Source: an uncultured Paraglaciecola sp.
GTDB taxonomy: Bacteria > Pseudomonadota > Gammaproteobacteria > Enterobacterales > Alteromonadaceae
Length of the DNA stretch: 64,000 nt
Assembly: GCF_943787955.1 (NCBI RefSeq)
Contig: NZ_CALSOK010000012.1
Location: 2,619-66,618, forward strand
Reading direction: 5' to 3'
A program made the position numbers and the translations under genes. Numbering within the stretch: the stretch's first letter is position 1; each line of letters starts with the position of its first letter. Of this stretch, positions 4,062 through 30,787 are shown piece by piece. The notes below the pieces were generated by a model. That model worked only from the letters and a program-made list of their open reading frames with translations, was not told the origin of the DNA and did not search any database.

Positions 4062-5766
4062 AAAAGTCCTTGGCTGAGTCAAGAACAGGTTTAACCACTT
4101 GTGCTCTGATAACAAAATCACCAAAAGCTTCGTCAGCATCACGTTCTTTAGACCAGCGGGCTATTAAGCAGTCTAACTCGCGCATGATTTCTTTTTCATC
4201 GATATTTTCACGGTACATTCTAGGGATCCGTGTACCTTGACGGTCACCACCTAAATGGAAGTTGTATTTTCCAGGGCCTTTGCCCACTAAGCCAACTTCT
4301 GCCAACATAGACCGGCCACAACCATTAGGACAACCGGTCACACGGTAGATGATACTTTCATCCTGCATGCCATGCTTGGCTAATAGCCCTTCAATCTCTG
4401 TCACTGCATCAGGTAAATAACGTTCTGCTTCAGCCATCGCTAATGGGCATGTTGGCAAAGACACGCAGGCCATCGAATCTTTGCGCTGCAAACTCACATC
4501 ATCAGCCATGAGCCCGTGCTCACGTGCTAGCTGTTCAATCTGCGATTTTTGCTCAGCGGGTACACCAGCCACTATCAAATTCTGATTTGCCGTTAGGCGA
4601 AAATCACCCATGTGTATTTTTGCAATTTCAGCACAACCGGTTTTCAGTGTTTTGCCCGGATAGTCTAAAATACGGCCGTTTTCGATAAACAAGGTAAGGT
4701 GGTGTTTGCCATCTAACCCTTCAACCCAACCAATGCGATCACCGCGTGAAGTAAATTCATACGGTCGACTTTTTGCAAAACTAATTTCTGAGCGTTTTTC
4801 TACTTCCGCTTTAAAATTTTCGACACCTACACGTTCTAAGGTATATTTAGTTTTCGCATTTTTGCGATTAACACGGTTCCCCCAGTCACGTTGAGTAGAC
4901 ACCACCGCTGCTGCTACCGCCAAAGTATGTTCTAAACTAATATAACCAAAGTCATCTGCTTTGCGTGGGAAAGTAGAAGTATCACCATGAGTCATGGCTA
5001 AGCCCCCACCAACCAAGACATTAAAACCAACCAACTTGCCATTTTCGGCAATAGCCACAAAATTTAAATCATTAGCGTGGACATCTACATCATTTTGCGG
5101 CGGAATAACCACTGTTGTCTTAAACTTACGAGGTAAGTAGTTATTACCTAGGATAGGCTCTACTTCAGTTGTTTCTGATTTTTCGCCATCAAGCCAGATT
5201 TCTGCATAGGCACGTGTTTTAGGCAGTAAATGTTCACTGATTTTTTTCGCCCACTCGTACGCTTCTTGATGTACTTCAGACTCTACCGGGTTAGATGTAC
5301 ACAACACATTACGGTTTACATCCCCAGCAGTCGCAATAGAATCAACACCAACCTGATTAAGCATTTGATGCATAGATTTCACATTAGGTTTTAATACCCC
5401 ATGGAACTGAAAAGTTTGACGGGTAGTTAAACGAATACTGCCGTAGATACTTTTTTCTTCAGCAAACTTATCAATAGCCAGCCACTGCTGCGTACTAATA
5501 ATGCCTCCAGGTAACCGAGCTCTTAACATTACATTTTGAAGTGGTTCTAACTTTTGCTTAGCACGCTCTGCACGAATATCGCGGTCGTCTTGCTGATACA
5601 TACCATGGAAACGAATAAGCTGGAAGTTATCGCCAACAAAGGCACCGGTTAAATCATCAGTCAAATTTTCTGCGATGGTTCCACGCAACAAGTTACTTTG
5701 GTCTTTCAAACGTTCGTTATCAGCTAGCTTGCCTTCAACGACGAAATTTTTGTGGTCTTTACTCAT
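4036..5766 (-). CDS. cysI: Assimilatory sulfite reductase (NADPH) hemoprotein subunit
   Basis: [14 protein letters not shown], plus siroheme/4Fe-4S motifs [13 protein letters not shown] and TGCPNGCGR. Confidence 0.97.
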
Positions 5767-7574
5767 TAGTAAACGTCCTTTTGATAACGTTTGGCACGAC
5801 GCAAGTCAGAAATATACTGTTCGGCTTGTTCATCACTTTTTGCACCATGGGCAATCACAATTTGAACTAAAGCGTCTTGCACATCTTTGGCCATATGGTT
5901 GGCGTCGCCACATACATAAATGTGTGCACCTTGCTCAAGCCATTGATAAATCTCAGCGCCTTGTTCAAGCATTCTATGCTGCACATAAACTTTTTGCTCT
6001 TGATCTCTAGAAAATGCCAAGCTGACTTTATTTAATACCCCATCTTTAACAAAACGCTGCCATTCAGTTTGATACAAAAAGTCCTGCGTATAATTAGGAT
6101 TACCAAAAAACAACCAGTTCTCACCACTTGCTTCTTCAGCTTCACGTTGTTGCATGAAAGCTCTAAAGGGTGCGATACCTGTGCCGGGCCCAATCATTAT
6201 AACGGGTGTATTGCCATCATCTGGCAAGCGGAAATTGTCGTTTTTCTCAACAAACACATTGACTTCACCACCTTCATCTAAACGAGTAGATAAAAAGCTT
6301 GAGGCACCACCTTGATGGGCATACCCGTGGGCGTCGTACTCAACTAAAGCAACGGTTAAGTGCACTTCATCTTCCACTTCTGCTTGACTAGAAGCAATAG
6401 AGTAGAGTCGTGGTGTTATCATTCTTAAGGTATCAACAAACTCCTGAGCATTGAGCTTAGCTGGATACTGTCGAACAACATCGATTATTTGACGCTGAGA
6501 CAGATATTCACGCAATACAGACTTATCATCCAACAGTGCATTGAGTTCAATATTGTTTGCGTATTTAGCATATTTTGTGACAAAAGTCGGATAGCTTTGA
6601 GTTAATTCTAATTTATTGATTAAAGCGTCGTTAAAATTGTAATCATCACCTGACCAATTTACTGAGGTATCACCTTGTAAACCAAGTAAAGTAGTTATCT
6701 CATCAACTAGGTTTATATCATTTTTAAACCACACACCTAACGCATCACCTGGGCGGTATTGAATACCAGAATTTTCAAGGGATATCTCAATATGACGGAT
6801 ATCCTTAACTGAATCTCGGCCAGTAATTTTTTGGCTTTCAAGCAGGGTTGCAGTATATGGCAATTTTTTAGTGTATTGACTGGCAACTGCAGCACTAGGG
6901 TGCATATTCAAGGATGGAATAACAGACTGGGAACTCTTTGCACTCAACTCATCTTTTACTTGATGTGTGATGGTGTCGAACCAAGCCGCTACATCTGCGT
7001 CGTAATCAACGTCACAATCAACCCGGTCAGTAATTCTGGTCGCGCCCAAGTCTTGTAAACGTTTGTCAAAGTCTTTCGCTGTTTGGCAGAAAAACTCGTA
7101 ACTTGTGTCACCTAAGCCCAACACAGCAAAGTTTAAATCATTAAGTTTAGGCGCTTTTTTTCCAGCTAAAAAGCTGTGTAGTGCCACAGCATCATCTGGC
7201 GCTTCGCCAATACCGTGGGTACTGACAATAATGACTACATGACTTTCTGTTTTTAGTTGCTTCTGCTTATAGTCAGCCATGCTAACTATTGTAGCAGGGA
7301 TATTTAGCGCATCTAATTTGGCTTTAAATTCCTGTGCCACAGATTTGGCGTTACCCGTTTGCGAACCATATAAGATAGTTAAAGACTTAGCATGGCTGCT
7401 ATCGGGTTGAGCTAAAACAGTAGATTGGCCTGTTTGCGCCATCCCAGCTAAGTAGCCACTCAACCAAGTTAGTTGTTGTGGATTGAGTGAGGCCGTTGCC
7501 TGATGAATTTGAGTCCACTGGTTTTCATTTAAACCTGCGGCAAGCCCAGTGGCTTGATTTATTACTGAAGACAT
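5766..7574 (-). CDS. cysJ: Assimilatory sulfite reductase flavoprotein subunit
   Basis: Flavodoxin motif [30 protein letters not shown], and C-terminal RYQKDVY. Confidence 0.97.
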
Positions 7575-7672
7575 ATAATCGCTAATCGTTGTGAATACAA
7601 CTATAGATTAGCGACACATGTTCATAACCGGAAAGAATAAAAAATAATTTTTTATAACCAAATTAAATTAAA

Positions 7673-8422
7673 TTAAAAATGCACCTCTAATCCAGCGTAT
7701 ATCCCCTTAAATTCAAGATCTGAATAAATGTCATCTAAATCATCTAAATCCAATGTTACAGCTCGATAACCAAGATGTAACGTCAAATCTATTGCAAGGT
7801 TGCCCATCAAGCTATAAGTTATCGCAGCTTGATAATCTGATATTGTATGATCGTCAATACTTAAGAAACTACCTTCTACAAATGCACCAAAACCAGTAAA
7901 TGGAACACCAACAGCCAGCCTAGAATAAACCATAGGAACTGGTCCAGAAAACTCTTCTCTACCTGTTTCACCATCAACTGTGGCCAAAAACTCCCCATCA
8001 ATATGTTTTGCATTGAGGCCAACATCGAAACTAACTAAATCATTATCAAACAATTCGTAATATAAAATGAAATCGGTAGTTGTTAATGATACATCTGTAA
8101 AAGCATTACCATTAGCAGCAAAAACTTTGTCACCCAATGTAAACTGAGCGTCCAATATGACATCACCTTGGGTATCCATAGCAGTTCTTTGCACTTTAAC
8201 ATTTGGGATCAGCGGAATAGGATGTTCAAAAGCCACATACAGATTTGTATTTGTTTGCTTTTCGAAATTAAACTCAGTATTACTTCCGTCATTTGAAAAC
8301 CCGCCTGAAGTTTCCATATTCCAAGCTTGCGCACCGGCATATAGCCCAAGTAAAGTGTCAGCTTGGCTGGTAAAACTTACACATAATGCTAATAATCCTA
8401 GAGATAGTGTGTTTTTTTTCAT
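7673..8422 (-). CDS. Outer membrane beta-barrel protein, TIGR04219 family
   Basis: Signal peptide, ADTLLGLYAGAQAW, FEHPIPLIPN, and a C-terminal Phe. The family was recognised from motifs. Confidence 0.75.
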   Translation of the reverse strand: MKKNTLSLGLLALCVSFTSQADTLLGLYAGAQAWNMETSGGFSNDGSNTEFNFEKQTNTNLYVAFEHPIPLIPNVKVQRTAMDTQGDVILDAQFTLGDKVFAANGNAFTDVSLTTTDFILYYELFDNDLVSFDVGLNAKHIDGEFLATVDGETGREEFSGPVPMVYSRLAVGVPFTGFGAFVEGSFLSIDDHTISDYQAAITYSLMGNLAIDLTLHLGYRAVTLDLDDLDDIYSDLEFKGIYAGLEVHF

Positions 8423-8425
8423 TAT

Positions 8426-9418
8426 TTAACCTTGATTCAACAATTCGCTTAATTCAATTAGAGCAGCATTTGCACGAGAAATATAGTTTGCCATCACCAA
8501 CGAATGATTAGCTAACGTACCAAATCCACTGCCATTTAATATAATCGGGCTCCATAAAGATTCTTGCGTTGCCTCCAATTCACGAATTATTTGTTGCAGG
8601 CTAATCGTGGCATTTTTCTTCTCAAGTACATCTGCAAAATCCACTTCCACTGCTTTTAAAAAATGTATCAATGCCCAGCTGGCGCCCCTGGCTTCATAAA
8701 AATTATCGTCTAACTGCCACCAGCTGGTTTTTTCAGTCAGTCTATTTGCCGTTGGCGTAGACTGAATAGCTTGAGCATCACCTGCTAGGCTTGTATCAAG
8801 ACGCTCTTGACCAACACTGGCACTCAATCGTTGTGAAAAACTACCTAAACGTTTCTCCAGCTGTTTCAGCCAATCTCTTAAATTATCGGCCCGAGCATAG
8901 AATTGTCCCTGTTGTTGGCGGCTATCAGACAAGCTACTTCTGTAAGCATATAAATTATCAATGCCTTCTTGATACTTGGACTCAGCTGAAGGCAATAACC
9001 AGCTTAAACTGTCTATATTGAACTGAGGTTGGGCTTTGGTTAAAAAAGGATTTTCTAACGATTGACTCTGTGAACGACTAAAATCTTGACGCATCGCTAG
9101 GGCCAAATCTCGCGTCATTTCTAAAGCACCAAACTCCCAGCTAGGCATATTGTCCATCATGACACTAGGTGGCAACACATCATTTGACAAATATCCACCA
9201 GACTTGTTTAGCAAGGTCTCGCTGACTTTAATTAAACTAGTAGTAATGGTGTAACCAGCGACAACAGACTCATTTCTCTGGCTAGCTTGCTGCTGGGCAA
9301 GTAGCTCAGGTTCAAATAAATCAGGCTCAAAGCTCCAAAATACTGACAAAATCCATAACAAGAAAATAAATAGTACGGCGGTGCTAAATAGCCATTTTGG
9401 TGCAAGGTATTGTTTCAT
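8426..9418 (-). CDS. DUF2333 family protein
   Basis: N-terminal TM segment, MDNMPSWEFGAL, DNFYEARG and SPIILNGSGFG. Confidence 0.8.
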   Translation of the reverse strand: MKQYLAPKWLFSTAVLFIFLLWILSVFWSFEPDLFEPELLAQQQASQRNESVVAGYTITTSLIKVSETLLNKSGGYLSNDVLPPSVMMDNMPSWEFGALEMTRDLALAMRQDFSRSQSQSLENPFLTKAQPQFNIDSLSWLLPSAESKYQEGIDNLYAYRSSLSDSRQQQGQFYARADNLRDWLKQLEKRLGSFSQRLSASVGQERLDTSLAGDAQAIQSTPTANRLTEKTSWWQLDDNFYEARGASWALIHFLKAVEVDFADVLEKKNATISLQQIIRELEATQESLWSPIILNGSGFGTLANHSLVMANYISRANAALIELSELLNQG

Positions 9419-9426
9419 GTTTTTCC

Positions 9427-9858
9427 CTAATGATGTTTGTGCACAGACGGCCCGGCGACCTTGGCCGAGATGATAATGGACTCACCGTCTTTGGTCTGTA
9501 AACTGATGGCTACAGACTCTCCTTCTGATAAGGGTTGTTTCAGCCCAAATAACATAATGTGTAGGCCACCGGGAGCAAACTGCACGGTCTGACCTGATTT
9601 AATAACGACCTCTGACTGTTGCTCCATTCGCATCATGTCATTCACCATTATATGATTATGAATTTCTGCTTTAGTAGCAAAATCCGCCGAAGCACCAATC
9701 AAAATTTGGGTGGTGTCCGAGCTGTTTTGAATAGAAAAATATGCCGCTGTGTTAGGTACACCAGGAGGCAGTAGTCTGACAGTTGCGTCTGTGACTATTA
9801 CTTCAGCGTGAATAACACCCGTTACTAAACTACACAGCAATACAAATAATCGAAACAT
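9427..9858 (-). CDS. Periplasmic copper chaperone, PCu(A)C family
   Basis: Signal peptide, AEIHNH..MMRM, and PGGLHIML copper-binding motif. Confidence 0.9.
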   Translation of the reverse strand: MFRLFVLLCSLVTGVIHAEVIVTDATVRLLPPGVPNTAAYFSIQNSSDTTQILIGASADFATKAEIHNHIMVNDMMRMEQQSEVVIKSGQTVQFAPGGLHIMLFGLKQPLSEGESVAISLQTKDGESIIISAKVAGPSVHKHH

Positions 9859-9956
9859 AAATCACCCACGTATAAAAATTGTCTCTGATTATTCAGTAAT
9901 TTTAATTAAGATACCATCCATTAAGCACAAAAGTTTGACCTAGGTCGTTGATAACA

Positions 9957-10289
9957 TTAATGGGCAGATGTCTGCTTGTCTCTCACTAAAAGAAAAATCA
10001 CTAAGGTAAATAAGATAACCGGCCAAAATACACTTAGACCGGCAACAAACAAACCAATTCCTGCGGTAATAAAGGCGAAAGCAATAGCAGTAAAAAGGCT
10101 AAATGCGATGATAAAACCCACTACAACCAATATAGCTAGCACGCCTGTTAGTGCGATAATGGAAGTGATAGGTTCAACATCATGCTTTGCAAAGGAAATA
10201 TGCAAATCTAACCACTAGGTTACTAAGTGACCCAGGCTGTACGTCAATACCATCGATATCAACACAGCTAGGGTTATGTTTTTAAACAT
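9957..10289 (-). pseudogene. Small membrane protein of the pspA-pspC operon with an in-frame TAG
   Basis: ATG at 10289 follows an AAGGGA RBS. It reads MFKNITLAVLISMVLTYSLGHLVT, then TAG (10217-10215), then continues in frame (WLDLHISFAKHDVEP...) to 9957. Confidence 0.7.
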
Positions 10290-10299
10290 GATGCATCCC

Positions 10300-10500
10300 T
10301 TATTTGTTTGGGATCAGGATTGTGGCAGTAATATAAGCGATAGCAGTGATGGTAGGCAGTGCGATTAAACAGACTACAGCCGCTACGCGAACTAACAACC
10401 TAGGTACGCTCCAATGTTTCGCTAAACCGGCACATACACCTGACACTTTTCGATGTATTGAATCTTTGTATAATCTATTTACTTCAAAATAACGACTCAT
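10300..10500 (-). CDS. pspC: PspC domain-containing protein
   Basis: RLYKDSIHRKVSGVCAGLAKHW...AYITATILIP is the PspC domain. Confidence 0.85.
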   Translation of the reverse strand: MSRYFEVNRLYKDSIHRKVSGVCAGLAKHWSVPRLLVRVAAVVCLIALPTITAIAYITATILIPNK

Positions 10501-10576
10501 GTTTTTCTCCTATGACTTCAAGTTTCTGCAGCTAGCGACAGTGGTGGTGCGCCACTAGCGAATGGGCAAATCAACA

Positions 10577-11236
10577 CTAAGCAACCTTTGAACGCAATGC
10601 TTCTAGCTCTTGCTCAATTTGACTCTCAGATTCAAGTTGATTGAACTGTGCATGTAAGCCTGTTGACTCATCCACTAAATCATAAGCGTCAACTTGTGAC
10701 TCTAGATCATCAATTCGGCGCTCATATTGCTCAAACCGGATAATTGCATCATCAATCTTCACTGAATGAGCTTTATTCTTAATGGTCATGCGCACGGCTA
10801 CCGAACGCTCTCTAATAATCAGAGATTTTTGTTTAGCTCGGGCTTCCACTAGTTTGTCTTGCAATTTGCCCATGTCAGCTTGTAATTTAGATAGCGATTC
10901 TTCAACCACATTTAGCTCATCAGTTAAAGCTGATAATTTTTGCTGACTATGGTGCTTTTCAACCAATGCGGCTCTAGCCAAATCTTCACGATCTTTCTCT
11001 ACCGCCAAGGCCGCCTTTGCCTGCCATGCATTGATCTGTTGTTGCAATTTGTCCACTTGGCGCTGTACCTGCTTTTTTTCAGCTAGGTGAGTGGCCGCCA
11101 CTGAGCGTAACTCCACTAAGGTTTCTTCCATTTCTTGGATCAGTAACTTAATCACTTTTGCAGGCTCTTCTGCCTTATCTAAGATGGCATTGATATTGGC
11201 TTGTATTATGTCTGACACTCTCGAAAACATACCCAT
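10577..11236 (-). CDS. pspA: Phage shock protein A (PspA/IM30 family)
   Basis: MGMFSRVSDIIQANINAILDKAEEP, coiled coil, REDLARAAL and FEQYERRID. Confidence 0.92.
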   Translation of the reverse strand: MGMFSRVSDIIQANINAILDKAEEPAKVIKLLIQEMEETLVELRSVAATHLAEKKQVQRQVDKLQQQINAWQAKAALAVEKDREDLARAALVEKHHSQQKLSALTDELNVVEESLSKLQADMGKLQDKLVEARAKQKSLIIRERSVAVRMTIKNKAHSVKIDDAIIRFEQYERRIDDLESQVDAYDLVDESTGLHAQFNQLESESQIEQELEALRSKVA

Positions 11237-11308
11237 GTTGATTTCTCCAATAAAATTAATAAATTTCCTGCTGGGCTATTCCAGCACTACCAGTACTAAC
11301 AACGCTAT

Positions 11309-11325
11309 TACAAGTGTTGTGCCAA
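11309..11325 (-). promoter_or_regulatory. Sigma-54 promoter of pspA
   Basis: TTGGCACAACACTTGTA on the minus strand matches TGGCAC-N5-TTGC with one mismatch at -12. Confidence 0.7.
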
Positions 11326-11418
11326 TTTAACAAGATAGGGTAAGCAATTGATTAAATTGAGTTTTTAATTAATTATGCAATACTTAACTATTTGAAAATC
11401 TCGAGCTAACTTAACAAT

Positions 11419-11455
11419 TTAGTCAAAAAGACTAAGTAGTTAGCGAAAATCACAA
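11419..11455. promoter_or_regulatory. Two putative PspF upstream activating sites
   Basis: Palindrome TTAGTC-AAAAA-GACTAA (11419-11435) and AGTTAGCGAAAATCACAA (11438-11455), which resembles the E. coli pspA UAS. They lie about 100 bp upstream of the sigma-54 site. Confidence 0.55.
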
Positions 11456-11716
11456 TTGATATTTAATAGACTGTGAGCCCACAACTTACGACAAAGAAAA
11501 AGTGGTTAATAGAAACTAGTCACGATACCCAATATGTTTAGGCTGTTCTGATCATTCTGTGGATTTCTTGGTATAGAGCATCACCGCAATATGTTGAATG
11601 ACGCCTATAAACGATAAACAGTCCTACTATAAACATATGCCAGCAGTCCGCATCACGGCAAAAAGGGCCGTACGCGGTTGAAAATTTTGGGATGATTTTA
11701 TCTCATAAATATAAAA

Positions 11717-11871
11717 TTAGGCGAGGAACGGTCATTCGAGTAGTCGAAACCAGGTGTCTGCTTAGCCCAAGAAAGCGGACGTAGCTATTTATGGTGTTTT
11801 AGTCCCTTTGGAGCGAATAGCGGATCTTCAGCTTTATTGCTTTGATGGACGGATTCACGCGCAAAACGGTC
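11717..11871. repeat. Array A of degenerate 24-25 bp palindromes, about 46-bp period
   Basis: GTCTGCTTAGCCCAAGAAAGCGGAC (11756-11780), GTCCCTTTGGAGCGAATAGCGGATC (11802-11826), GACGGATTCACGCGCAAAACGGTC (11848-11871), and a half element ending at 11733. Confidence 0.7.
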
Positions 11872-12001
11872 ATCGAACTCGCTCATAACTATATCTCAAT
11901 ATGGCACATGGCGCATTACAGAACATCCCTATTTAACTTTAAATTAGTGGCCATATTCACCAAGCCACTAGTGTATATAATATTGACATATGGGTGAATT
12001 T

Positions 12002-13036
12002 TTAGCGTGATTTTTTATGTATTGAAAGTATATCTTCAATAACAGCGTATCCTGTTTCCAAGCGCCCAGCACCTGGACCAATTAAGGTAATATCACCTAG
12101 TAATTCTGTTGAATAAGTAATAGCATTTGTCGCGCCTTTAATTGATGCGAATGGATGTTCACTCGATACCATCTCAGGTTTAACTGATGCTAAGAACCCA
12201 TAGTTATGCTTTTCAATTGTTCCAATTAATTTCCAATGCTTCTTTAAAGAAGTGGCGTTAAAAATATCATTCTTTGTGATATGGCAAATGCCTTGACGCT
12301 CTATATCATCTAATGTAAGCGATAAATCCATTAAAAGATTCCCCAGAATAACTACTTTTGCAGCGGCATCATAACCCTCAACATCCCCTGTAGGATCTGC
12401 TTCAGCATAACCAAGTTCTTGTGCTTGTTTGAGTGCATTTTCATACCCTGCTCCTGAAGACATCTCATCTAATATATAATTTGTCGTGCCATTAAGAATC
12501 CCTTGGATTTTTGTTATTCCGGCAGCTAACACCATCTCATTACCTAAGTTTATTGCAGGAGTTCCGCTCATTACAGTGCCTTCAATGCCAATTTGAACAT
12601 TATTGCTTAATGCTATTTTACGAAGTTCAGGAAAATGTAAAGCCACCGGTCCTTTATTAGTCATAGAAACATGCATACCATTATTTAATGCCTGTTTAAT
12701 ATGACTTACTGCGGGTTCACCTGTTTGTAGATCAGTAAAAGCAAGCTCTACTAAAATATCAGCTCCACTTTTATCAATCGTTTCAGTCGCATTCCAGCCA
12801 GTGATGGGAGCCGAAGTACTTTTTAGATCTCCATGCTTTTCTAGATCAGATAATAATACTTCAGGGTCCAAACCCTTAGGGTTATAAAGACTTCCTTTAT
12901 ACAAGTCACATATCGCTACGATGCTTAAATGAATACCAAACTTTTCTATTAACAGTTGTTTTTTATCACTAATAATTTTAGTTAGGCCTTGACCAACATT
13001 CCCAAAACCGATTATTGCTAATGTGTATGTTTTCAT
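12002..13036 (-). CDS. Homoserine dehydrogenase (short form, no ACT domain)
   Basis: IIGFGNVG Rossmann motif, MTNKGP, GILNGTTNYIL, GYAEADPTGDVEGYD and GPGAGRLETG. Confidence 0.92.
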   Translation of the reverse strand: MKTYTLAIIGFGNVGQGLTKIISDKKQLLIEKFGIHLSIVAICDLYKGSLYNPKGLDPEVLLSDLEKHGDLKSTSAPITGWNATETIDKSGADILVELAFTDLQTGEPAVSHIKQALNNGMHVSMTNKGPVALHFPELRKIALSNNVQIGIEGTVMSGTPAINLGNEMVLAAGITKIQGILNGTTNYILDEMSSGAGYENALKQAQELGYAEADPTGDVEGYDAAAKVVILGNLLMDLSLTLDDIERQGICHITKNDIFNATSLKKHWKLIGTIEKHNYGFLASVKPEMVSSEHPFASIKGATNAITYSTELLGDITLIGPGAGRLETGYAVIEDILSIHKKSR

Positions 13037-13088
13037 TATGTTCTTCCTAAGTTAACTCTTTAAAATGTTGAATGATTGTTCGATGGCG

Positions 13089-14525
13089 TTACTTTCGTAA
13101 ATTAAAACAATAAGTTTTTATGTCGGTCATTTCTTTAACAGCATTCATAACACCTTCTCGGCCAACACCTGATCCTTTGACTCCACCAAATGGCATTGCA
13201 TCAATGCGATAATCACTGCTGTCATTTATCATGACGCCACCACAATCCATTGAATCTGCAAGTTCAAACGCTAACTCAAGATCATTGGTAAATATTCCAG
13301 CTTGTAAGCCAAATTCAACATCATTTGCTTGAGCTATTGCCTCTTTTTTATCAGAAAATCGATACAACACAGTGATAGGTCCAAACACTTCTTCTTTGGC
13401 AATTAAGCAGTCACTGCTTACATTTGCAAAAACAGTAGGTTGAAAAAAATTTCCCTGTCTTTTCCCACCACACAGTAATGTGGAATTTTTCTCTAGGGCA
13501 TCTTTTACCATCGCTTCAACTTTAAGAGCAGCACGATTATTAATCATTGGACCCATCTGCGAAGATTCAGATAGTTTGTCGCCCATAGATATTTTGCTTG
13601 CACGCAAACAAAACTCTGAGGAAAACTGATCATATAGTTCATCTTGAATATAAATTCTTTGAACATGTAAACAGTTTTGGCCTGCTGCCCAGAAAGCACC
13701 ACTGACACATGCTTCCATTGCCATCTCAATATTTGCATCATTCATGACTATTACTGGACAGTTACTGCCAAGCTCCATTGATACTTTCTTTAAACCTACG
13801 TGACTTAGAATTCTTTCTCCGACACATTTTCCTCCAGTAAATGAAACCATATTAATGCGAGGATCTGATACGATCTTATCGCCTATATCTATTCCATATC
13901 CTGTAACCAAATTTAAGATACCTTTAGGTAAATTTGTTTTATTAAATAGCTCTACAAGCAGTTTTGCGACAAGAGGCGTCTCATGGTGAGGCAGGAGGAT
14001 TATTGAATTTCCTGCTGCTATAGCGGGACCAATTTTATGAGCGACTAAATTTAAAGGGTCATTGAAGGGAGTAATAGCTGCAACAACGCCAATAGGTATC
14101 CGACGATAATACCCAAACCTATTTTCAGAGCCGGGAGCTTGATCAAAAGCAATAGTTTCTCCCGTTAAACGCCTCGCTTCTTCCGCGCTTATTCGTATGG
14201 TTTCCACACATCTAGAAACTTCTTTACGCGCTTCATTAATGGTTTTAATACCTTCACGAGCAATCATTTGAGCGAAGAATTCTTTTTGATTTCTTAAATT
14301 ATCAGCAACGTCATTAAGTACAGACATTCGTAAATGTGAAGACAGTTTTTTAGCTTTTTGGGCGCCTATCACTGCGGTCTCAATAATAGCGTCCACTTCA
14401 CTTAAAGAGTTGTTCACAACTGTTCCGACTAAACTGCCGTCTTCAGGGTTGAATACTTGTATCTGTGGTTGTGAGCTTTTTACATCTATAGCAGCGGAAG
14501 CAGACAAATTTTGTATTGCAGACAT
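13089..14525 (-). CDS. NAD(P)-dependent aldehyde dehydrogenase
   Basis: ITPFNDP, SFTGG, catalytic Glu (MELGSN) and Cys (GQNCLHVQR), EEVFGP, and MPFGGVKGSG. Confidence 0.93.
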   Translation of the reverse strand: MSAIQNLSASAAIDVKSSQPQIQVFNPEDGSLVGTVVNNSLSEVDAIIETAVIGAQKAKKLSSHLRMSVLNDVADNLRNQKEFFAQMIAREGIKTINEARKEVSRCVETIRISAEEARRLTGETIAFDQAPGSENRFGYYRRIPIGVVAAITPFNDPLNLVAHKIGPAIAAGNSIILLPHHETPLVAKLLVELFNKTNLPKGILNLVTGYGIDIGDKIVSDPRINMVSFTGGKCVGERILSHVGLKKVSMELGSNCPVIVMNDANIEMAMEACVSGAFWAAGQNCLHVQRIYIQDELYDQFSSEFCLRASKISMGDKLSESSQMGPMINNRAALKVEAMVKDALEKNSTLLCGGKRQGNFFQPTVFANVSSDCLIAKEEVFGPITVLYRFSDKKEAIAQANDVEFGLQAGIFTNDLELAFELADSMDCGGVMINDSSDYRIDAMPFGGVKGSGVGREGVMNAVKEMTDIKTYCFNLRK

Positions 14526-14683
14526 GGTGATATTCCTTTGTTATCTCTTTAGTGAATTATGGATAGTCTACCTAGCAGTAACGGTATACATCAGTCCTTA
14601 TATAAAGATAAGTGATTATTAATTCATTGTTTTTGTAAAATATTGATAGAATCACATCAGTAATTGCGAGGGAGTATTGAGTT

Positions 14684-15157
14684 GTGAAATTAAGTAAGCA
14701 AGATCTAAAAATATTGGAATTATTACAAATAGATGTAAAAACTTCTGTTGAGCGCCTTTCCGAAGAAGTAGGGTTATCGGCTGCAAGTATACAGCGACAC
14801 TTAAAGCGCTTAAGAGATAATAAAGTTATCGCTCAGGAAGTAGCAATAATATCGCCTGACTCTGTAAATCAATCAATGACCTTTATCATATCTGTACAAC
14901 TAAATAGAAGTTATAACGATTGTTTTAATTATTTTAAAAACAAAGTAAAAAATAATAATAATATCCAGCAGTGTTACTACATAACGGGTGAGGCGGATTT
15001 CGTTCTGGTAGTGACAGCAAAAGATATGGAAAATTTTGAAGAGTTTACTCAATTATTTTTTTTTAGTGACATTGCTGTGCTTCACTTCAAAACATCTGTT
15101 GTTATGGGCAGAACAAAAGTTAGTTTAGCATTACCCCTGAATTGTGTAGATATATGA
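14684..15157 (+). CDS. Lrp/AsnC-family transcriptional regulator, divergent from the ALDH-hom operon
   Basis: N-terminal HTH (LSEEVGLSAASIQRHLKRL) and C-terminal QCYYITGEADFVL. Confidence 0.9.
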   Translation: MKLSKQDLKILELLQIDVKTSVERLSEEVGLSAASIQRHLKRLRDNKVIAQEVAIISPDSVNQSMTFIISVQLNRSYNDCFNYFKNKVKNNNNIQQCYYITGEADFVLVVTAKDMENFEEFTQLFFFSDIAVLHFKTSVVMGRTKVSLALPLNCVDI

Positions 15158-15391: not shown

Positions 15392-15558
15392 GACCGCTCT
15401 GGTGGCTAACTTGCCGTAAAAAAATCAGAAAACATGGATTTTGTATGCCCGCTTATGGCACAAACTTCCCCATCAGGGTAAACGCTCGACCGTCTGCTAT
15501 TAGGCTCACAGCGGCCTGATTCAATTCCCAAATGACTGCTTAGCCTAAGTAAACGGAC
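15392..15558. repeat. Array B of degenerate 24-25 bp palindromes (four elements)
   Basis: GACCGCTCTGGTGGCTAACTTGCC (15392), GCCCGCTTATGGCACAAACTTCCC (15447), GTCTGCTATTAGGCTCACAGCGGCC (15492) and GACTGCTTAGCCTAAGTAAACGGAC (15534). The last matches the 11756 element at 21/25 positions. Confidence 0.7.
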
Positions 15559-15603
15559 TGTGGTGAAATACAATTTTTTGGTAATCTATCGCAGTAATAT
15601 GGA

Positions 15604-15675
15604 CATTAACGCTGCGCTCACCGGCAAGCTTTAAGCGCAGCGAGGAGCTTGTCCGAGTGAAGCGCCTTGTTAAAT
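15604..15675 (-). other. Integron attC site (72 bp)
   Basis: The minus strand reads ATTTAAC (R'', RYYYAAC)-AAGGCGCTTCACTCGGACAAGC...GCTTGCCGGTGAGCGCAGC-GTTAATG (R'). This is an imperfect palindrome with bulges. R'' is the exact complement of GTTAAAT at the cassette start. Confidence 0.88.
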
Positions 15676-16298
15676 TTTCCATGACCCTTTATAAACTCAT
15701 ACATGACAATCTCTTCGGCTAAATATTGTCGAAGTTGTTTTTCGAGTTCATGGTCTAAAGAAGTAGAAAACTTAGGTGATATATTTTCATGTGGTATCTC
15801 GATTTCTCGCCCTATTTTTTTAGATAGAAAGTCAGCGACTAAGTCTAGCCTATTCATTGGCATTATATGATCTACGCCAATCTCACCATTAGTCATAGTT
15901 AGGAAGTCGTATTGACTTGCCAAATTTGCAAATGGCTTCCTTTTTCCTTCAGAAATATATTCTTTGATATATTCATTGTAACTCATGCCACCGGTGTAAT
16001 TTCGATGATTTGGATGATTCGGGTTTTTAATTTCATCTCTAGTTTTATAGCGATACCTGCTTTCCATCCTTTCTAAAGGATCTCTTATCAAACTGAAAGA
16101 TTCTATCTCTACATTTGGAAGCAGTTTCTTGTGCGCAGAAAATATTGTTTCAGAGAATAATTGAGCATTAATGTGTTTTAATTTGGGATGTCCCGAAAAA
16201 TTTATATTGCAAAATGGTTGTATAGCCTTTTCAATAGATGTTGATGCACACTTCGGCATGCACAAAAAAGCAATACCATACTTAGTAGACATCTGCAT
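15618..16298 (-). CDS. Integron gene cassette ORF: sulfotransferase family 2-like protein
   Basis: PKCASTS (5'-PAPS-binding-like) and IRDPLERMESRY (3'-PB-like) motifs. The ORF starts 16 bp after the attI crossover and its last codons run through attC. Confidence 0.65.
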   Translation of the reverse strand: MQMSTKYGIAFLCMPKCASTSIEKAIQPFCNINFSGHPKLKHINAQLFSETIFSAHKKLLPNVEIESFSLIRDPLERMESRYRYKTRDEIKNPNHPNHRNYTGGMSYNEYIKEYISEGKRKPFANLASQYDFLTMTNGEIGVDHIMPMNRLDLVADFLSKKIGREIEIPHENISPKFSTSLDHELEKQLRQYLAEEIVMYEFIKGHGKFNKALHSDKLLAALKACR

Positions 16299-16313
16299 AA
16301 CACGTATCCTGTA

Positions 16314-16345
16314 ATTTAACGCTTATTATCGAGCATGTCGTATAT
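16314..16345 (-). other. Integron attI site
   Basis: The minus strand reads ...CATGCTCGATAATAAGC-GTTAAAT, giving a GTTRRRY core at 16320-16314. It lies between the divergent intI and the first cassette. Confidence 0.75.
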
Positions 16346-16626
16346 GTAACTTCTCGATTTGATTTTTATTTTCGTCAATTTCAGTACTTACCTATTAATT
16401 TTTATGTGATATTTTTCACTTTCATGCCAGCAAGACCGCAAAGAATTGAAAAGCAAAAGGAGACCTGACTTTAACGCGACTTTTCTGCTTCCTATTAAAA
16501 ACTATGTGAATAATATTTTCCATAATTAAATGAATAACTTAGCGTATTTTTGAAAAACAAAACGAGACCTAAGGAATTTACATAATAGGAAGCAATCTTG
16601 GCATTATTTTAAAATATGCATTATAT

Positions 16627-16643
16627 CTGTATATAAAAAACAG
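16627..16643. promoter_or_regulatory. LexA (SOS) box of intI, one base too long
   Basis: CTGTATATAAAAAACAG is CTG-N11-CAG, against the CTG-N10-CAG consensus. It lies 23 bp upstream of the intI ATG. Confidence 0.7.
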
Positions 16644-17536
16644 TATGATTTGCAGAGGGTAATATTATGTCAAAGTCACCTTTTATAGAATATGTTCGAA
16701 CTATTTTGCGAACCAAAAGGTATAGCATAAAAACTGAAAAGGCCTACCTTCATTGGATTAGGCGATTTATTTATTTCAACGGCAAGCGTCACCCTAAAGA
16801 TATCGGTGAACTAGAGGTTGAACAGTTTTTATCACATCTTGCCATAGCGCTAAAAGTCTCGCCAACGACTCAAAATCAAGCCTTGTGCGCCATCATTTTT
16901 ATGTATCGTCATGTGCTTAATATGGACTTGACTAATATGTCCTTTAAATTTGCTAAGACGCCTGTCCGTGTACCTGAAGTATTAAGTCATAATGATGCGA
17001 TTGCTGTAATCGATAAATTACGAGGGGTTCATCATACTATTGGGACATTAATGTATGGCGCGGGATTTCGTATATCTGAGGTGCTGAAGCTGCGCGTAAA
17101 GGATTTTGATTTTGAACGAAATACTATTTTTATTTTTCATTCAAAAGGCCAAAAAGACCGTGTAACCATGTTTCCAGAATTGACTAAGACCGAGATTACT
17201 AAACAAATTCAAAAAGTGGAGTGTATTCACCAAAAGGACATTGATGAAGAGTATGGACTGTCATCACTACCACCTGCTCTAATTCGTAAATATGGGAAAG
17301 CCGCTACTAACTTATCTTGGCAATATATATTTCCTTCAACTACACGATGTGTCCCCCTTACGATGGCTATGTATGCCGGCATCACCTTCACCAAACTGGG
17401 TTTCGAAAGGCCTTAAAGAAAGCAGTGCAAGAAGCAGGCATTTTAAAACGGGTTACATCACATACCTTTCGTAAGCGTCCGGTGATCCACGCCTAGCAGT
17501 CATCCATTATTCATTCGAAAATACTTCCTCACTGTA

Positions 17537-17845
17537 ATGGGAGGTATTATGAAGCATAAAACACTAGATGAATGGCAGAAATTGATAAGCCAACAACAAA
17601 CGAGTGGGTTAGCCATTGTTGATTTCTGTAAAGAGCACAGAGTTAGCACATCAAGTTTTTATAAATTTCGTGGGCGATTACAACAGCAAGTTAACCCGCC
17701 TCGTTTTGTAAAAGCTAGCAAGTCTGCTATCGACGCGACTATTCAACCATCAGTATCTGTCAGATTGGGCGAGGTTTCGTTATCTTTTTCGACGTCTTGC
17801 GAGCCTGTTTGGTTGGCAAGTTTCGTTAAGGCACTGCAATCATGA
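17537..17845 (+). CDS. tnpA: IS66 accessory protein TnpA
   Basis: WQKLISQQQTSGLAIVDFC...SSFYKFR HTH; first ORF of the IS. Confidence 0.88.
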   Translation: MGGIMKHKTLDEWQKLISQQQTSGLAIVDFCKEHRVSTSSFYKFRGRLQQQVNPPRFVKASKSAIDATIQPSVSVRLGEVSLSFSTSCEPVWLASFVKALQS

Positions 17846-18192
17846 GAATGTTCGTTGAGCCAGATGACATTTATTTGCACCTTGAGCATGTTGATTTTAG
17901 AAAGTCGATTAATGGCTTGCTGGCGATTATCGAAAGTGAATTAACATTAAACGCATTCTCCGGTGCATTATTTATCTTCTGTAACAAAAAACAAGACAAA
18001 CTCAAACTCTTATACTGGGATAAAACCGGGTTTGCATTATGGTACAAACGGTTGGAGAAACAACGCTTCAAATGGCCTAAGTGTGGCCAACTCAAACACA
18101 CTAATTTGAGTGAGCAGCAGTTAACATGGTTGCTCGGTGGCTATGATGTCGTTGGACATCGCAGCTTGGATTACACGGCCTCTGGGTTATAA
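17842..18192 (+). CDS. tnpB: IS66 accessory protein TnpB
   Basis: VDFRKSINGL, KLLYWDKTGFALWYKRLEK. Confidence 0.93.
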   Translation: MRMFVEPDDIYLHLEHVDFRKSINGLLAIIESELTLNAFSGALFIFCNKKQDKLKLLYWDKTGFALWYKRLEKQRFKWPKCGQLKHTNLSEQQLTWLLGGYDVVGHRSLDYTASGL

Positions 18193-18269
18193 CGTACGAT
18201 CATAAGTAGCATTTAACGATCACGTTTTAATCTAATTGAAAACAGTCACTTAGGGTTATAATAAGTGAC

Positions 18270-19766
18270 ATGAATAAAGCCCAACTACGCCAACAAATAG
18301 CCGAGCTTAGCAAGCAAGTTGAACGATTAGAAAGTCGCAATCAGTTTCTTGAAGAGCAGTTTCGTCTTGCCCAACAAAAACAATTTGGGGCGAGTAGCGA
18401 AGGTCACCCTGGTCAAGGTGAATTGTTTAATGAAGCAGAAGAGCTGGTTGCTGAAACACCTGTCGAAAAAGAAGACATCAGCTACACACGCAATAAACCT
18501 AAGCGTAAACCATTACCAAAAACATTACCTCGTGAAGTGGTTATCCATGATATTGCACAGGAAGATAAAGTCTGTGCTTGCTGTAACAATGAATTGCACA
18601 AGATAGGTGAAGACAAGACTGAAAAGCTTGAATTCATCCCTGCTCAAGTTAAAGTGATAGAGCATGTTCGTCCTAAGTATGCGTGTCGTGTATGTGAAAA
18701 GGACGGCATTAGCAATCACATCAAACAAGCACCGGTGCCACCTTCAGTTATCCCTAAAGGTTATGCGACACCAAGCTTACTTAGTCAGGTAATCACCAGT
18801 AAATATCAATTTGGGTTGCCACTGTATCGTCAAGAAGCGATGTTCAAACAATACGGTATTGAACTGAGCCGCAAAACTATGGCCGATTGGATGTTGAGGT
18901 GCGCTGACTTGCTCACACCGCTATATGACCATTTACACGAATTGATACTTAAGCAAGGCGTCATTGCCGCTGATGAAACCACCTTAAAAGTCGTCAGCGA
19001 AGATAAAGCGAAATGCTATATGTGGGTGTATACCTCAGGCGCCGACTCACCTGAAGGGAAATTACCCAATACTGACATCCCAAATATCGTGCTGTACGAC
19101 TATCAATCGAGTCGCGCGGGTCAATGTGCCGTGGATTATTTACAGGGTTACAACGGGTATCTACAAGTGGATGGCTATGCGGGTTACCACAAAACCCAAG
19201 CGACACTCGCAGGCTGTTGGGCCCATGCGAGACGTAAATTCGTTGAAGCCAAAACCGCACAGGGCAAAAAATCTAGCGGCAGAGCCGATTGGGCACTTAA
19301 CCATATTCAAAAGCTGTATCGTATTGAAACGCAAATAAAAGCGAGTGCACCTGATAACAGGCGGAAAGTAAGGCAGGAAAAGAGCACTATATTGCTCAAA
19401 CAGTTCGAAGCGTGGCTGATAAAATCAGAGTCGCAGGTATTGGCAAAAAGCAAATTAGGCGAAGCCATCACCTACTGCTTAAATCAGTGGAGTAAACTCA
19501 ACACTTACACCCAATATGGTCACCTGAACATCGATAATAACCGCGCTGAGCGCGCGATAAAACCCTTCGTCATAGGCAGAAAGAACTGGTTGTTTAGTCA
19601 AACGGCCAAAGGCGCTAAGGCCAGTGCCATACTGTACAGCATTATAGAAACTGCAAAGGCAAACGGACTAACGCCGTTCGACTATATGATGCATTTACTT
19701 GAACAAGTCTCGGTTCAAAACACCGATATCGAGCCACTGCTACCATGGCGATTTGCTAAAGACTAG
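18270..19766 (+). CDS. tnpC: IS66 DDE transposase TnpC
   Basis: Zn finger CACC...[47 protein letters not shown]. Confidence 0.96.
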
Positions 19767-19990
19767 GTGGGATTGCCGGACGCTTACTACCTTTCGGCAT
19801 AGTTTCGCAACAAGATTGCTTGAAACAGGACATGACATCAGAGTCGTGCAAGAATTACTGGGGCATGATGATGTAAAAACCACGCAAATTTACACCCACG
19901 TTTTAGGTAAGCATAAATCTGGAGCAATAAGTCCGACGGATGTGAGATGAAAGACTTAAAATATTAGCACACCTATTAGCCAGACTCTTA

Positions 19991-20021
19991 GACCGCCTGA
20001 TTTTAGGCTCACAGCGGCCTG
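19991..20021 (+). repeat. 31-bp direct repeat of 15488-15518 containing one palindrome
   Basis: GACCGCCTGATTTTAGGCTCACAGCGGCCTG versus GACCGTCTGCTATTAGGCTCACAGCGGCCTG, 28/31 identical. Confidence 0.85.
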
Positions 20022-20107
20022 TCAGAGAACTTCTTTCTCAACGAATGCAGCACATTCGAGCCAGTCAGTTCTTGCTCATTAACTCAATAACAACTCTCTT
20101 TTTTCAC

Positions 20108-21052
20108 CTACTTTATCTCTGTGCTATTCGTGTCCTCGCCATTTGTAACTGTCATCGTTTTTGTGTCCCTGACATAGACCGTTTCGCGCAGCAATGCTGT
20201 GCGACCGATACAAGTCCCATGGCCGGGTGCAACGGGATTGTCCTGCATATATTTGATGAATACTTTGTCTGCGTGGCGACTTGCAACGACGTGATACTTG
20301 CCGTCTGACGTATCCAACAACGCCATAAAAGCATATTGCGGTTTGCAAATACGCGCAGCGACATTCAGGACTTCGTCCAGAACCGGGTTGAGTTCATGCG
20401 GGGATCGCGAAATAACGGCAAGGACATCAGATGTAGCAGTCTGATATGCTAGTGCTTCTTGTGTTTCGTGCAAAAACCGTGAATTTGCGATGGCAATGCT
20501 GGCTTGCTCGGCAAAAGTCTGGATCAACGCGATATGAGAGTGCAGCGGAGTATCAGCTTCCGGCCAGGCCCTAATGATCGAACCCCAGACTTTGCCATCG
20601 CTAAGTATCGGAACACCTACCATTTGGCTAAATCCAAATCTCCGAGCCGTCGCGTGATCAAGGTAAACTTCGGATTGTGCATCCAGAACACGAACCACTT
20701 TGCCAGTTTTGATCAGAACGGCCGAAATCGACTTTTCCAGTGTCGGCTGAGCCGGTCGCGACGTATGAAATTGATTGTATTCTTCGGTGAACCCGTAGCT
20801 GGAACAATAGTGATCCAAATCACTTTCATAGCGCCAGACCACACTAAATTGCTAACTACAAAGCTCAGTTGCGCTTTTTGCAATTGTGTCAAACACCTGC
20901 TGGATGTCGTTGGTTGACCTTTCGATGACGTGCAAAATTTCGACCATAGCCGCGGCTTGCGCGCGTTGGCTTGGCAGCTCAAGTTTCAGGTTTTTCACTT
21001 CCTGAATGAGTTTGATGATTGCCTTAGACTGTTTAATGGGGTCTGATTGCAT
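20108..21052 (-). pseudogene. Truncated multi-GAF-domain sensor protein
   Basis: Repeated GAF blocks (IQQVFDTIAKSATELC, QTFAEQASIAIANSRFLHETQEALAYQTATSDVLAVISRSP). There is an in-frame TAG at 20852-20854, a frameshift near 20160, and no output domain. Confidence 0.75.
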
Positions 21053-21283
21053 CGCCTAAAATCATTCAAAAAATGAACCAGCGCGCGCCAAAACTGCTCC
21101 GTTTTACATTCATGAGAACTGTAGCGATGAAACCTGTTATAGCAATCAGTTTTTCCTGAGGCTTCCATAATGAAAGCACTGGAACTCTTGTTTCCAAGTG
21201 CTGACTGATCATTTTTGTGCGATAGAGAAATCCACTGGTTTACTGCCATTTCCTACGGAAGGTAACGTAGACCATCATGTGGG

Positions 21284-22066
21284 TCAGAACGATTTTTGGG
21301 CGCGGATGTGATGCGGGCAATGTTCACCGGTCTCCAAAGGCAGGATCATGGCGGCCCAAAGCTCTTCCATTTCTTGCATGTAACTGGCCCCATGGGCACG
21401 ATCAAATGCGTCCCGTTCTTTTCCCGTCATCAACAGAAATTCGTTCTTGGCCACCTCAAAATACCACGGATTGCGATTGCGCAGACCAAATTGGGTAAAG
21501 CCTGCGTACGAAAATGCACTTTCATAGCGAGTCGGGGAAGCCATCGCAAAGTCCAAATCTTCAAGTTTGATGTAAGCCTGCATTTCGGGAGACGGGGTGT
21601 TGTCATGCGAAATCAGCCAATCAGATGCCACAAACCAACCCCCCGGCACCAAAACACGAAAAACTTCCACGGCCAGAAATTCCTTGTCCGGAATGTGAAT
21701 GATTGCGTCCTTTGAAAACACGATATCAAAGGTAGCGTCAGTGAAATCAAGCGGTCCGGGTTCAACCTGCCGGATGGTGATGTTCTTGCCAAAACCGGAT
21801 TGATCGGCACGGGCACGCGCTGCGGTACAGACGGGTTCTTCGACATCAATGCCTGTTACATGCGCCGCACTATGGTCGCGCAAAAGGGTGACAGCTATTG
21901 CCCCTGTGCCGCAGCCAATGTCCAGAACCCGTTTGCCTTTCAGATCCAAACCTTCAACAACGCGCGCAACTTTTTCAGGGCCGCCGGGCGACAAATAACC
22001 TTCGCCCCAGATCGCTTCGAGAAAAGAAGTAAGTTCGCTATCATAATGCAATTCGATATCAGCCAT
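21284..22066 (-). CDS. Class I SAM-dependent methyltransferase, phosphoethanolamine N-methyltransferase-like
   Basis: VLDIGCGTG motif [40 protein letters not shown]. Confidence 0.75.
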
Positions 22067-22146
22067 TTCAGATGTCCTCTATTTGTAGGGAATTGATATA
22101 GGCTTCGACAAAACGTTGCGCATAAACTTCCATCGACACAAAGGAA

Positions 22147-29058: not shown

Positions 29059-30064
29059 ATGACAGCCAATAACAACAACGGCAGTAATCTTCAGTGGATT
29101 TTACCCTTTGTATTACTTACCGCCTTGTTGCTAGTAGAGTTACTGGTTGTGGGCCTGCGGGTGGATGCGCAAACTCTCGCAAGTAAGGACGGTGTGCTGG
29201 CATTGGTGCTGTCGAATATGGGCCACCTTCACGATTTATACTTGTCTTTGTGGTGGCCTTTCTTAATTTATTGACACCTCGTTTTAAGGTTCACATCCAG
29301 CTATTTTGGCGAGCCAGGGCCAGCGTAAAAAGTGGTATTGGTTGCTGTTGCAATGCATTGCTTTTATTTTCTCACCATTGAAATATTTGCAGGCAGTGCT
29401 GTAACGAGCGATTCGGCTTTGCTGATTGCTCTGGGATGGTTTTCGCGGCTGCTGTTATCGCCGTGTGCTCCCTTTTATATTGGGGCCGCTCAGTTTTTGG
29501 AATATTTTTTTAGCAAAAGAAAAATCAGCTTTGCTTGTAGCGGCCGCTATTGGTGTATTGACTTTTTTTGTCGCCAATTCTAACAGTTTTGGTATCCTTT
29601 GGACAAGATGACCTCCACAGTTTCTCAATGGTTTTTGGAGCTGATGTTTGATCGGGTTCATGTTGATAAAGTTAATTTAGCCCTTAGCGCGGAAGATTTT
29701 ATCGTCATCATTGCGCCAAGTTGTCCCGGGTATGAGGGCATAGGATTAATCTCCATATTTACAGGCCTTTATCCTTGGGTATTTAAGCGGGAATTCCATT
29801 TCCCCCAAGCCTTCTTACTGTTTCCCATTGGCATTATTTCGGTCTGGGTATTAAACGCGCTGAGAATTCATCACTGATTGCGATGGGCGCTACCTTTTCG
29901 CCTAAAATTGCCTTGGAGTGTTTTCATGCACCGGCAGGGTGGATCTTCTTTACTGCGAAGGCTGTTGGCTTATTCTTGCTATCTCAATGTATCAAATATT
30001 TCTCTAATGAACACGTCGTTAAGGACATGCATTCTGATGATGTTGAACTGTCAACGAATTTGAG
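29059..30064 (+). pseudogene. Fragmented exosortase (resembles exosortase E of the VPEID-CTERM type), 3'-truncated
   Basis: Multi-TM fragments with IAPSCPGYEGIGL (catalytic Cys), VLNALRI and FHAPAGW. Several stops and frameshifts, cut at the oriIS-like end. The subfamily call is tentative. Confidence 0.65.
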
Positions 30065-30724: not shown

Positions 30725-30787
30725 TGTTGTGGTTGAATTAACCGGACACTTCAATAAAGGATTATAATCCTGTTAATTGAGGTGAAT

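Follow-up and report, generated by a model that had tools for sequence, protein, structure and literature searches.

The window analysed here, a 64,000-nt stretch of contig NZ_CALSOK010000012.1 from an uncultured Paraglaciecola sp. (assembly GCF_943787955.1), carries a minimal integron enclosed by two copies of a 31-bp direct repeat. These 31-mers are the core common to two members of a dispersed family of non-coding repeats with units of ~100-200 nt, and we tentatively explain the location of the integron by recombination at such repeats, through which the integron segment could have been gained or lost. An earlier note on this sequence had placed the 31-mers in the same orientation at 15488-15518 and 19991-20021, with 28 of 31 positions identical, and both coordinates and identity were confirmed. 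Its account of the integron also agrees with our analysis: a folding attC, attI, a cassette and an intI gene split by IS66, with ~85 bp from attC to the left repeat, ~40 bp from the intI stop to the right repeat, and an enclosed unit that measures ~2.15 kb without IS66 (~2.2 kb in the note) and holds only intI, attI and one cassette. The intI gene is doubly dead in the window, by a frameshift and by the IS66 insertion. When up to three mismatches are allowed, the 31-mer matches the window at these two positions only, a second match appeared in 0/100 dinucleotide-preserving shuffles of the window, and a local alignment of the surroundings shows that the similarity of the two copies ends at 31 bp. 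The bracketing of the integron by the 31-mers is non-random. In addition, the same arrangement was recovered in independent assemblies (L001, L003, L006, L013, and L015), and it is therefore not an assembly artefact. A chance similarity or an artefact, for which only the shortness of the repeat could be invoked, is effectively refuted by the shuffles and by the recurrence of the arrangement across many independent assemblies and runs.

The left 31-mer forms the right half of a 64-nt motif, composed of tGGCACAAACTTCCCC.TCAGG, ~22 variable nucleotides and TTAGGCTCACAGCGGCCTG, beyond which an arm of 22-27 nt extends. The corresponding complete unit, copy L, begins with a conserved block (GGCACAAACTTCCCC.TCAGG), after which come ~22 variable nucleotides, the 19-nt core and an arm of 22-27 nt (attcaattccc..ctgcttagcc); it was delimited using a multi-copy alignment, nhmmer, edges given by depth steps and loose ends, and a diverged copy in L031. 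The arms define a short type (attcaattc..., copies L and L021a) and a long type (tcagagaac... or tcaaccc..., copies L025, L027, R, and L021b), with intact long-type copies at positions 9067-9249 of L025 and 1276-1452 of L027. Copy R does not have the 5' conserved block, and the 3' flank of intI is found in its place. Therefore, the overlap of a full short-type copy with a 5'-truncated long-type copy explains the 31-bp extent of the repeat, and a target duplication is unnecessary. Its left edge corresponds to the truncation point and its right edge to the point of divergence between the subfamilies. The core, which is constrained and shows 0/19 differences among copies, is made of the inverted half-sites TTAGGC-N8-GCCTGA, and the neighbouring 22 nt differ at about half of their positions. 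A third copy in the window, B, is degenerate and partial, aligning to window 15498-15582 with a score of 45 (z = 4.7, 0/500 shuffles equal). All three copies share one orientation and lie within 9 kb, and no other is found elsewhere in the 64 kb (Table 1).

Table 1. Coordinates of the repeat copies and of the integron in the window.
Feature	Position	Strand	Remarks
Copy B, degenerate partial third copy	11718-11783	+	far end of the HomDH-AldDH-AsnC block
Copy L, complete short-type unit	15436-15545 (ends approximate)	+	downstream of AsnC
Left 31-mer, GACCGTCTGCTATTAGGCTCACAGCGGCCTG	15488-15518	+	last 19 nt (TTAGGCTCACAGCGGCCTG) are the invariant core
Spacer, copy L to last attC	15546-15603	.	part of the 74-bp stretch 15539-15612
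attC of the single cassette	15604-15675	-	R'' ATTTAAC, R' GTTAATG, imperfect hairpin
Cassette ORF (open reading frame), 226 aa, sulfotransferase family	15618-16298	-	Sulfotransfer_2, PF03567, E = 1e-9
attI and promoter region	16314-16666	-	junction GTTAAAT at 16314-16320; conserved in L016 and L018
intI pseudogene	16667-19950	+	16667-17470 plus 19796-19950; frameshift and IS66 split
IS66-family element (tnpA, tnpB, tnpC)	17471-19787	+	8-bp target duplication TACCTTTC at 17463-17470 and 19788-19795
Spacer, intI stop to right repeat, 40 bp	19951-19990	.	likeness to other IntI-clade loci fades inside
Copy R, 5'-truncated long-type unit	19989-20137	+	upstream of the dusA side; 31-33 nt with the core, then arm b (20022-20137)
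Right 31-mer, GACCGCCTGATTTTAGGCTCACAGCGGCCTG	19991-20021	+	28/31 identical to the left copy; 19-nt core identical

Copies of the family were found in at least five contexts. In L021, two full copies surround a 1.45-kb module whose single ORF has no assigned function, and L031, a relative of the HomDH-AldDH-AsnC block that lies between copies B and L in the window, has a diverged left copy (z = 7) at the same place past the AsnC gene. In runs X12 and X13, the core depth is ~3x that of the single-copy flank, as expected from copies L and R together with an integron-free allele, and the copy number of the family in the communities of the window organism is about 2-3. In sea-ice/brine metagenomes (X26, X27, and X33), words of the unit reach a depth of 5,000-14,000 versus 3-30 on the flanks, several hundred times deeper, and the unit defined by depth (L021 1854-1952, equivalent to window about 15449-15545) has sharp edges and many different flanks. 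The family is thus a very high-copy dispersed repeat in some cold-marine bacteria. Other stretches near the repeat unit of L021 (768-822, 1809-1853, and 1971-2060) are likewise multi-copy. The exact 19-mer gave two matches in 185,579 species genomes, in unrelated taxa (Paenibacillus and Planctomycetota) and near the chance number, and seven loci in the JGI metagenomes, five of them relevant; since the core of the family consensus differs at one or two positions, these exact-word scans missed the abundant family.

Regarding the nature of the unit, Rfam searches of the window and of the uninterrupted copy in L025 gave no match, and no tRNA or transfer-messenger RNA (tmRNA) gene was found, so that a reading as an RNA gene was rejected. 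A small protein was likewise rejected, given that the frames across the unit are short and the substitutions, judged by eye, mostly non-synonymous. The unit had no match in the phage and plasmid databases, the full unit showed neither significant secondary structure nor inverted ends, and no target duplication was seen at its edges.

Further information comes from integron-free alleles, for which the population data consisted of the assembled contigs of public runs, where rare forms are hidden. Two loci, L025 and L027, present one complete repeat copy followed by the window sequence 20022-20137, a 93-aa gene, dusA and recQ, with no integron. The right flank of L026, which bears intI and the right 31-mer, is 95-96% identical to that of L025 and L027 over 1.5-2.7 kb, and integron-free and integron-bearing alleles are found together in X13 and X10 at similar depth. 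With regard to the empty site that the earlier note had proposed to look for, a single copy joined to the dusA-side flank was recovered, and no two-sided empty site was found. L008 was considered as an empty site and rejected, as its similarity to the window stops at 20050, short of the 31-mer, and unrelated high-GC genes follow; it is probably a chimera or another rearrangement. In the distant Paraglaciecola loci L036 and L037, the gene order is dusA-93aa-(600 bp)-pspA-pspC...cysJI, and in the window lineage the same pspA-dusA gap contains copy B, the HomDH-AldDH-AsnC block, copy L, the integron and copy R. It follows that the two sides of the integron, AsnC and dusA, are genuinely adjacent in the chromosome, and the pspA-dusA interval is a plastic region in which relatives have only about 600 bp.

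In the explanation that we tentatively favour, the integron segment sits in a slot between copies L and R, and its gain or loss would have resulted from an exchange between repeat copies at or beside the 19-bp core. This recombination could be of the short-homology (Campbell) type or could depend on a putative site-specific recombinase acting in trans. The proposal of the earlier note that the platform was moved by recombination at these sites holds in part: the non-random bracket, the single-copy dusA-side alleles and the direct-repeat bracket of the closest IntI relative agree with it, and neither a two-sided empty site nor a circle was recovered. A chance placement is unlikely because, in a genome with few copies, both lie <100 bp from the integron ends, in one orientation and with an identical core.

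Nevertheless, several observations weigh against recombination between the repeats. An identity of 19-31 bp is short for RecA-dependent recombination, the unit contains no candidate recombinase besides the dead IntI, and the window encodes no homologue of the small integrase that adjoins a repeat-like copy in L028. Integron-free alleles differ in their left flank, with IS91-like/IS3 debris and a divergent 5' block of the repeat copy. The deletion product, which would read AsnC side-...CTGCTA-core-TCAGAGAAC..., that is, the AsnC side joined to a single copy and arm b (15518->20022), was absent from the assembled contigs of eight runs, and the circle junction, which would read ...CAGACTCTTAGACCGCCTGATT-core-ATTCAATTCCC..., was not seen in the same contigs, from which assembly removes rare forms. 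No repeat brackets a Psychrosphaera integron (IntI 82% identical) whose two flanks are both visible. Likewise, the 74-bp stretch 15539-15612 at the array end is found in other contigs with different neighbours on either side, and in low-depth contigs it lies (~90% identical) beside the last attC with a different left neighbour; this diverged relative thus has the array-end stretch without an adjoining copy L, and the left repeat copy is not always directly beside the array end. Finally, both copies look older than a recent insertion, because L031 has the diverged left copy and because a contig with a ~10% diverged intI 3' end enters the 31-mer variant TGTCCGGTATAAGGCTCGAAGCTGCCTGTC at the same point (after ...CTTAGAC), showing that the right-copy junction predates that divergence or was transferred along with it.

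In the main rival explanation, the repeats and the integron have independent histories, having arrived separately in a pspA-dusA hotspot of mobile DNA, and the repeats took no part in moving the integron. We consider it somewhat unlikely. It would fully account for the 31-bp extent through the truncation point and the subfamily divergence, and it fits the age of both junctions (the diverged left copy downstream of AsnC in L031 and the intI-to-R junction shared with the ~10% diverged intI), the high abundance of the family in related communities, the IS66, IS3 and IS91 debris and rearrangements that fill the region, and the four contexts in which the HomDH-AldDH-AsnC block itself is found. However, the family is low-copy here, and yet its copies lie ~40 bp and ~60-90 bp from the integron ends in one orientation, with a 19-nt core that is identical between otherwise strongly diverged copies. 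Moreover, a second and unrelated direct-repeat bracket surrounds the closest IntI relative.

IntI sequences 85-93% identical to that of the window are found at unrelated chromosomal contexts (L016, L017, L018, and L040) in different species, so that the integron platform has moved between sites, although not always with the 31-mer repeat, which none of these four relatives carries. The flanks that the earlier note had proposed to look for at close IntI homologues are thus missing, and the likeness of the relatives to the window fades ~15-40 bp past the intI stop. Among plasmids, no IntI more than 57% identical was found. The closest relative, from P. chathamensis (GCA_030549145.1, L016; IntI 93%), resembles the window in being minimal, with one FMN-reductase cassette, attI and intI, and in being bracketed by a direct repeat outside both ends. 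It differs in its chromosomal context and in the repeat itself, which is unrelated to the 31-mer and longer (122 nt at 93% with the repeat finder, 134 nt by local alignment), with copies at 152/163-284 and 2743/2758-2879, separated by ~186 bp from the array and by 98 bp from intI. The spacers beyond the last attC and after the intI stop show no significant similarity between the window and L016. The L016 repeat contains TCAACTCCCGCCAGCTCC(G/A)CCA followed by a terminator hairpin, and a 22-mer in it resembles the 3' end of the E. coli ssrA (tmRNA) gene; for tmRNA, there was no Rfam match in L016 and no gene was called nearby. At another relative, L040 (IntI 85%), the gene adjoins a cluster of large ORFs (1556-9292), two of which have tyrosine-recombinase matches, and this cluster may be a multi-recombinase mobile element.

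Direct-repeat brackets are present in two of the three clade members with both flanks visible. A generalization in which minimal integrons of this Alteromonadales clade (intI, attI and cassettes) move whole via flanking short direct repeats, drawn from a dispersed family in the window genome and from the unrelated 134-bp repeat in P. chathamensis, is unlikely in our view; it would provide a route for integrons between chromosomal sites and genera that is independent of transposons and plasmids. The mobilisation of chromosomal integron platforms is poorly understood beyond the Tn402, Tn7 and ISCR cases, and here the two closest clade members are each bracketed by short direct repeats, with no close plasmid relative for any member. 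If the repeats are handles for movement, they would offer a cheap and general route of dissemination, open to a systematic search; otherwise, they call for caution, since att sites can be mimicked by a dispersed repeat with few copies in a given genome.

The borders of the unit were also compared with the sites used by integron recombinases and by integrative elements. The earlier note had described the whole as an integron packaged as a cassette, and this description fails. No attC-like fold was detected at the repeat, on both strands of the 31-mers, in their 146-nt surroundings or in the full unit, relative to shuffles (z from -0.95 to +0.8), and the repeat borders have no R''/R' boxes; an attC or attI identity of the 31-mer was rejected on both counts. 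The G|TT crossover is not at the 31-mers either, as the two copies have ATTAGGC and TTTAGGC, in which the required G is missing, and their identity runs 19 nt rightward. The genuine cassette borders lie elsewhere, at ~15610 and ~16320. The unit is like an integron gene cassette in being discrete and located between direct repeats, and unlike it in having borders without the attC-type imperfect hairpin, the R''/R' boxes and the G|TT crossover.

A direct core repeat is nevertheless present at both ends, as at attL and attR, and the strictest form of the earlier model would take the 31-mers as such sites of a dedicated, integron-only integrative element, with a circle containing intI, attI, the cassette and one 31-mer integrated at a single chromosomal 31-mer by a tyrosine recombinase, possibly IntI. 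The single-copy allele on the dusA side would agree with this model, as would the invariant core with inverted half-sites TTAGGC and GCCTGA around 8 bp, the bracket around the closest relative, and the presence of a recombinase gene 40 bp from one repeat, in the way that int genes adjoin att sites. The only recombinase gene inside the unit is intI, which is dead in the window and, in further agreement with the model, intact in L026. In attI1, however, the half-sites are ordered GCCTAA-N7-TTAGGC, and the order in the core, TTAGGC-N8-GCCTGA, is the opposite. The site also lacks an attC-like fold, the 22-bp left arm past the core is part of the repeat and not of the integron, the 31-mer is missing from the IntI relatives, no circle was seen in the assembled contigs, and the two bracketed integrons have unrelated repeats, so that one recombinase cannot explain both. 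We regard this model as improbable. More generally, a dedicated att site of an integron-only element is unlikely because the arms belong to the repeat family, the repeats of the two bracketed integrons are unrelated and the half-sites are opposite to those of attI. An argument for site-specific exchange from "2x2 recombinant arms" was dropped, the arms being subfamily-specific parts of the repeat unit.

Another possibility, which we judge very improbable, is a rolling-circle process of the IS91/ISCR type, in which the repeat would be one end, termination- or origin-like, of an IS91-family element and the integron would have been carried by one-ended transposition, in the way that ISCR elements carry DNA adjoining class 1 integrons. 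The idea arises from the IS91-family remnants at 22144-~23200 and 30062-30724 of the window, from those located directly beside repeat copies in L021, L025 and L027, and from the presence in the repeat of AAACTTCC and CTCG, resembling the oriIS and terIS motifs of IS91. Nonetheless, the repeat and the transposase are oriented differently to each other in L027 and in L021, neither L nor R of the window adjoins an IS91 body, no significant hairpin forms in the repeat, and the local oriIS-like end of IS91 is a different sequence, TATAGGTAAAATAAAACG. The terIS cleavage site used in this comparison is that of PMC13181058.

The two window remnants, both on the minus strand, come from an IS91-family (Y2-HUH) element; they are incomplete and 96% identical to each other. 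Each has the oriIS-like end TATAGGTAAAATAAAACG, a 15-nt tandem repeat, GTGGAGGGCCACCCC (x3 and x4), and what is left of a degenerate transposase, and the second is interrupted by an IS3-family element at ~30735-31951. Just outside the IS91-like oriIS end, at 22100-22143, GCGCATAAACTTCCATCGAC seems to resemble the repeat 5' block GGCACAAACTTCCCCATC.

Among known systems, class 1 integrons flanked by miniature inverted-repeat transposable elements (MITEs), or integron mobilization units (IMUs), reportedly include the IMU of Enterobacter cloacae and the pairs of 439-bp MITEs in Acinetobacter. Such MITEs are characterised by terminal inverted repeats, generate target-site duplications and are moved in trans by a known transposase family. 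As in these IMUs, a small or defective integron lies here between same-orientation copies of a short non-coding repeat, and the flanking copies belong to a multi-copy dispersed family; here too, the whole platform could be moved or lost without a transposon, if the mobility suggested here is correct. Unlike the MITEs, the present repeat has no inverted ends, significant fold or target duplications, and one copy is truncated. A second comparison is with the tandem accretion arrays and cis-mobilizable elements (CIMEs) found at att sites. As in them, modules are separated by core copies in the same orientation (B, the HomDH-AldDH-AsnC block, L, the integron, R), a passenger module without a working integrase is present and a single-site allele exists. 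In contrast to them, both arms here are repeat subfamilies instead of chromosome versus element, no cognate integrase was identified, and, unlike att sites, the family numbers hundreds of copies in relatives. By analogy, a mechanism akin to that of MITE-flanked IMUs or att-flanked modules would be favoured over IntI/attC cassette recombination.

Within the bracket, the integron has the expected components of a platform: an IntI of the TIGR02249 type, a folding attC beside a cassette ORF, and the attI junction GTTAAAT. The folding energy of attC is -17.2 kcal/mol (z = -2.8). After removal of IS66 and restoration of one base, the repaired IntI is 319 aa long, scores 386 bits against TIGR02249 (cut-off 265), and is 93% identical to its P. 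chathamensis counterpart, which is annotated as an integron integrase, and 89% identical to the one in P. marina. The -1 frameshift lies at 17355 (GTCCACCC->GTCCCCC). It is shared by the alleles L013 and L015, which do not have IS66, and is therefore older than the IS66 insertion; IS66, also not present in L026, is a later arrival in the integron. In L026, a 96%-identical allele from another sample, intI is intact. Upstream of intI, all of the runs examined (8/8) have one base fewer at window 16635, and the extra base could reflect either an indel peculiar to the window or a mistake in the assembly.

Other variants were found in the public runs. Contigs free of IS66 join 17462->19788, and a cassette-free joint, 15612->16317, is present in runs X10, X12 and X13; it skips 704 bp and falls a few bases from the predicted cassette ends. 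Some run contigs have other cassettes beyond 15612, and L022, from the same sample as L026, presents the AsnC side, the left copy and another last cassette. Therefore, the cassette-free and alternative-cassette contigs indicate that cassette turnover happened in the population, even though the intI of the window strain is dead. The IS66 element occurs in two 100% identical copies in the window, at 17470-19787 and 42015-44332, 24.5 kb apart. In ERZ10646654 contig_24621 (L002, L007), the segment between them is inverted, connecting intI' to the HAD/NUDIX genes and GAF to the type II secretion system (T2SS) genes.

On the left of the integron, the HomDH-AldDH-AsnC block (homoserine dehydrogenase, aldehyde dehydrogenase and AsnC; window 11972-15157) occurs with 88-91% identity in at least four genomic contexts (loci L028, L031, L033, and L034) and looks like a small mobile island. 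In L028, it lies beside a small tyrosine-recombinase pseudogene (6640-7038) and an inverted repeat-like sequence (about 7095-7150). On the right, window 20138-22143 contains GAF-domain and methyltransferase genes with 48-49% GC in a genome of ~40% GC and is not found in L025, L026 or L027. The final ~10 codons and the stop of the GAF ORF are supplied by arm b of the repeat, with the junction at 20137, and in L008 the junction differs (20050).

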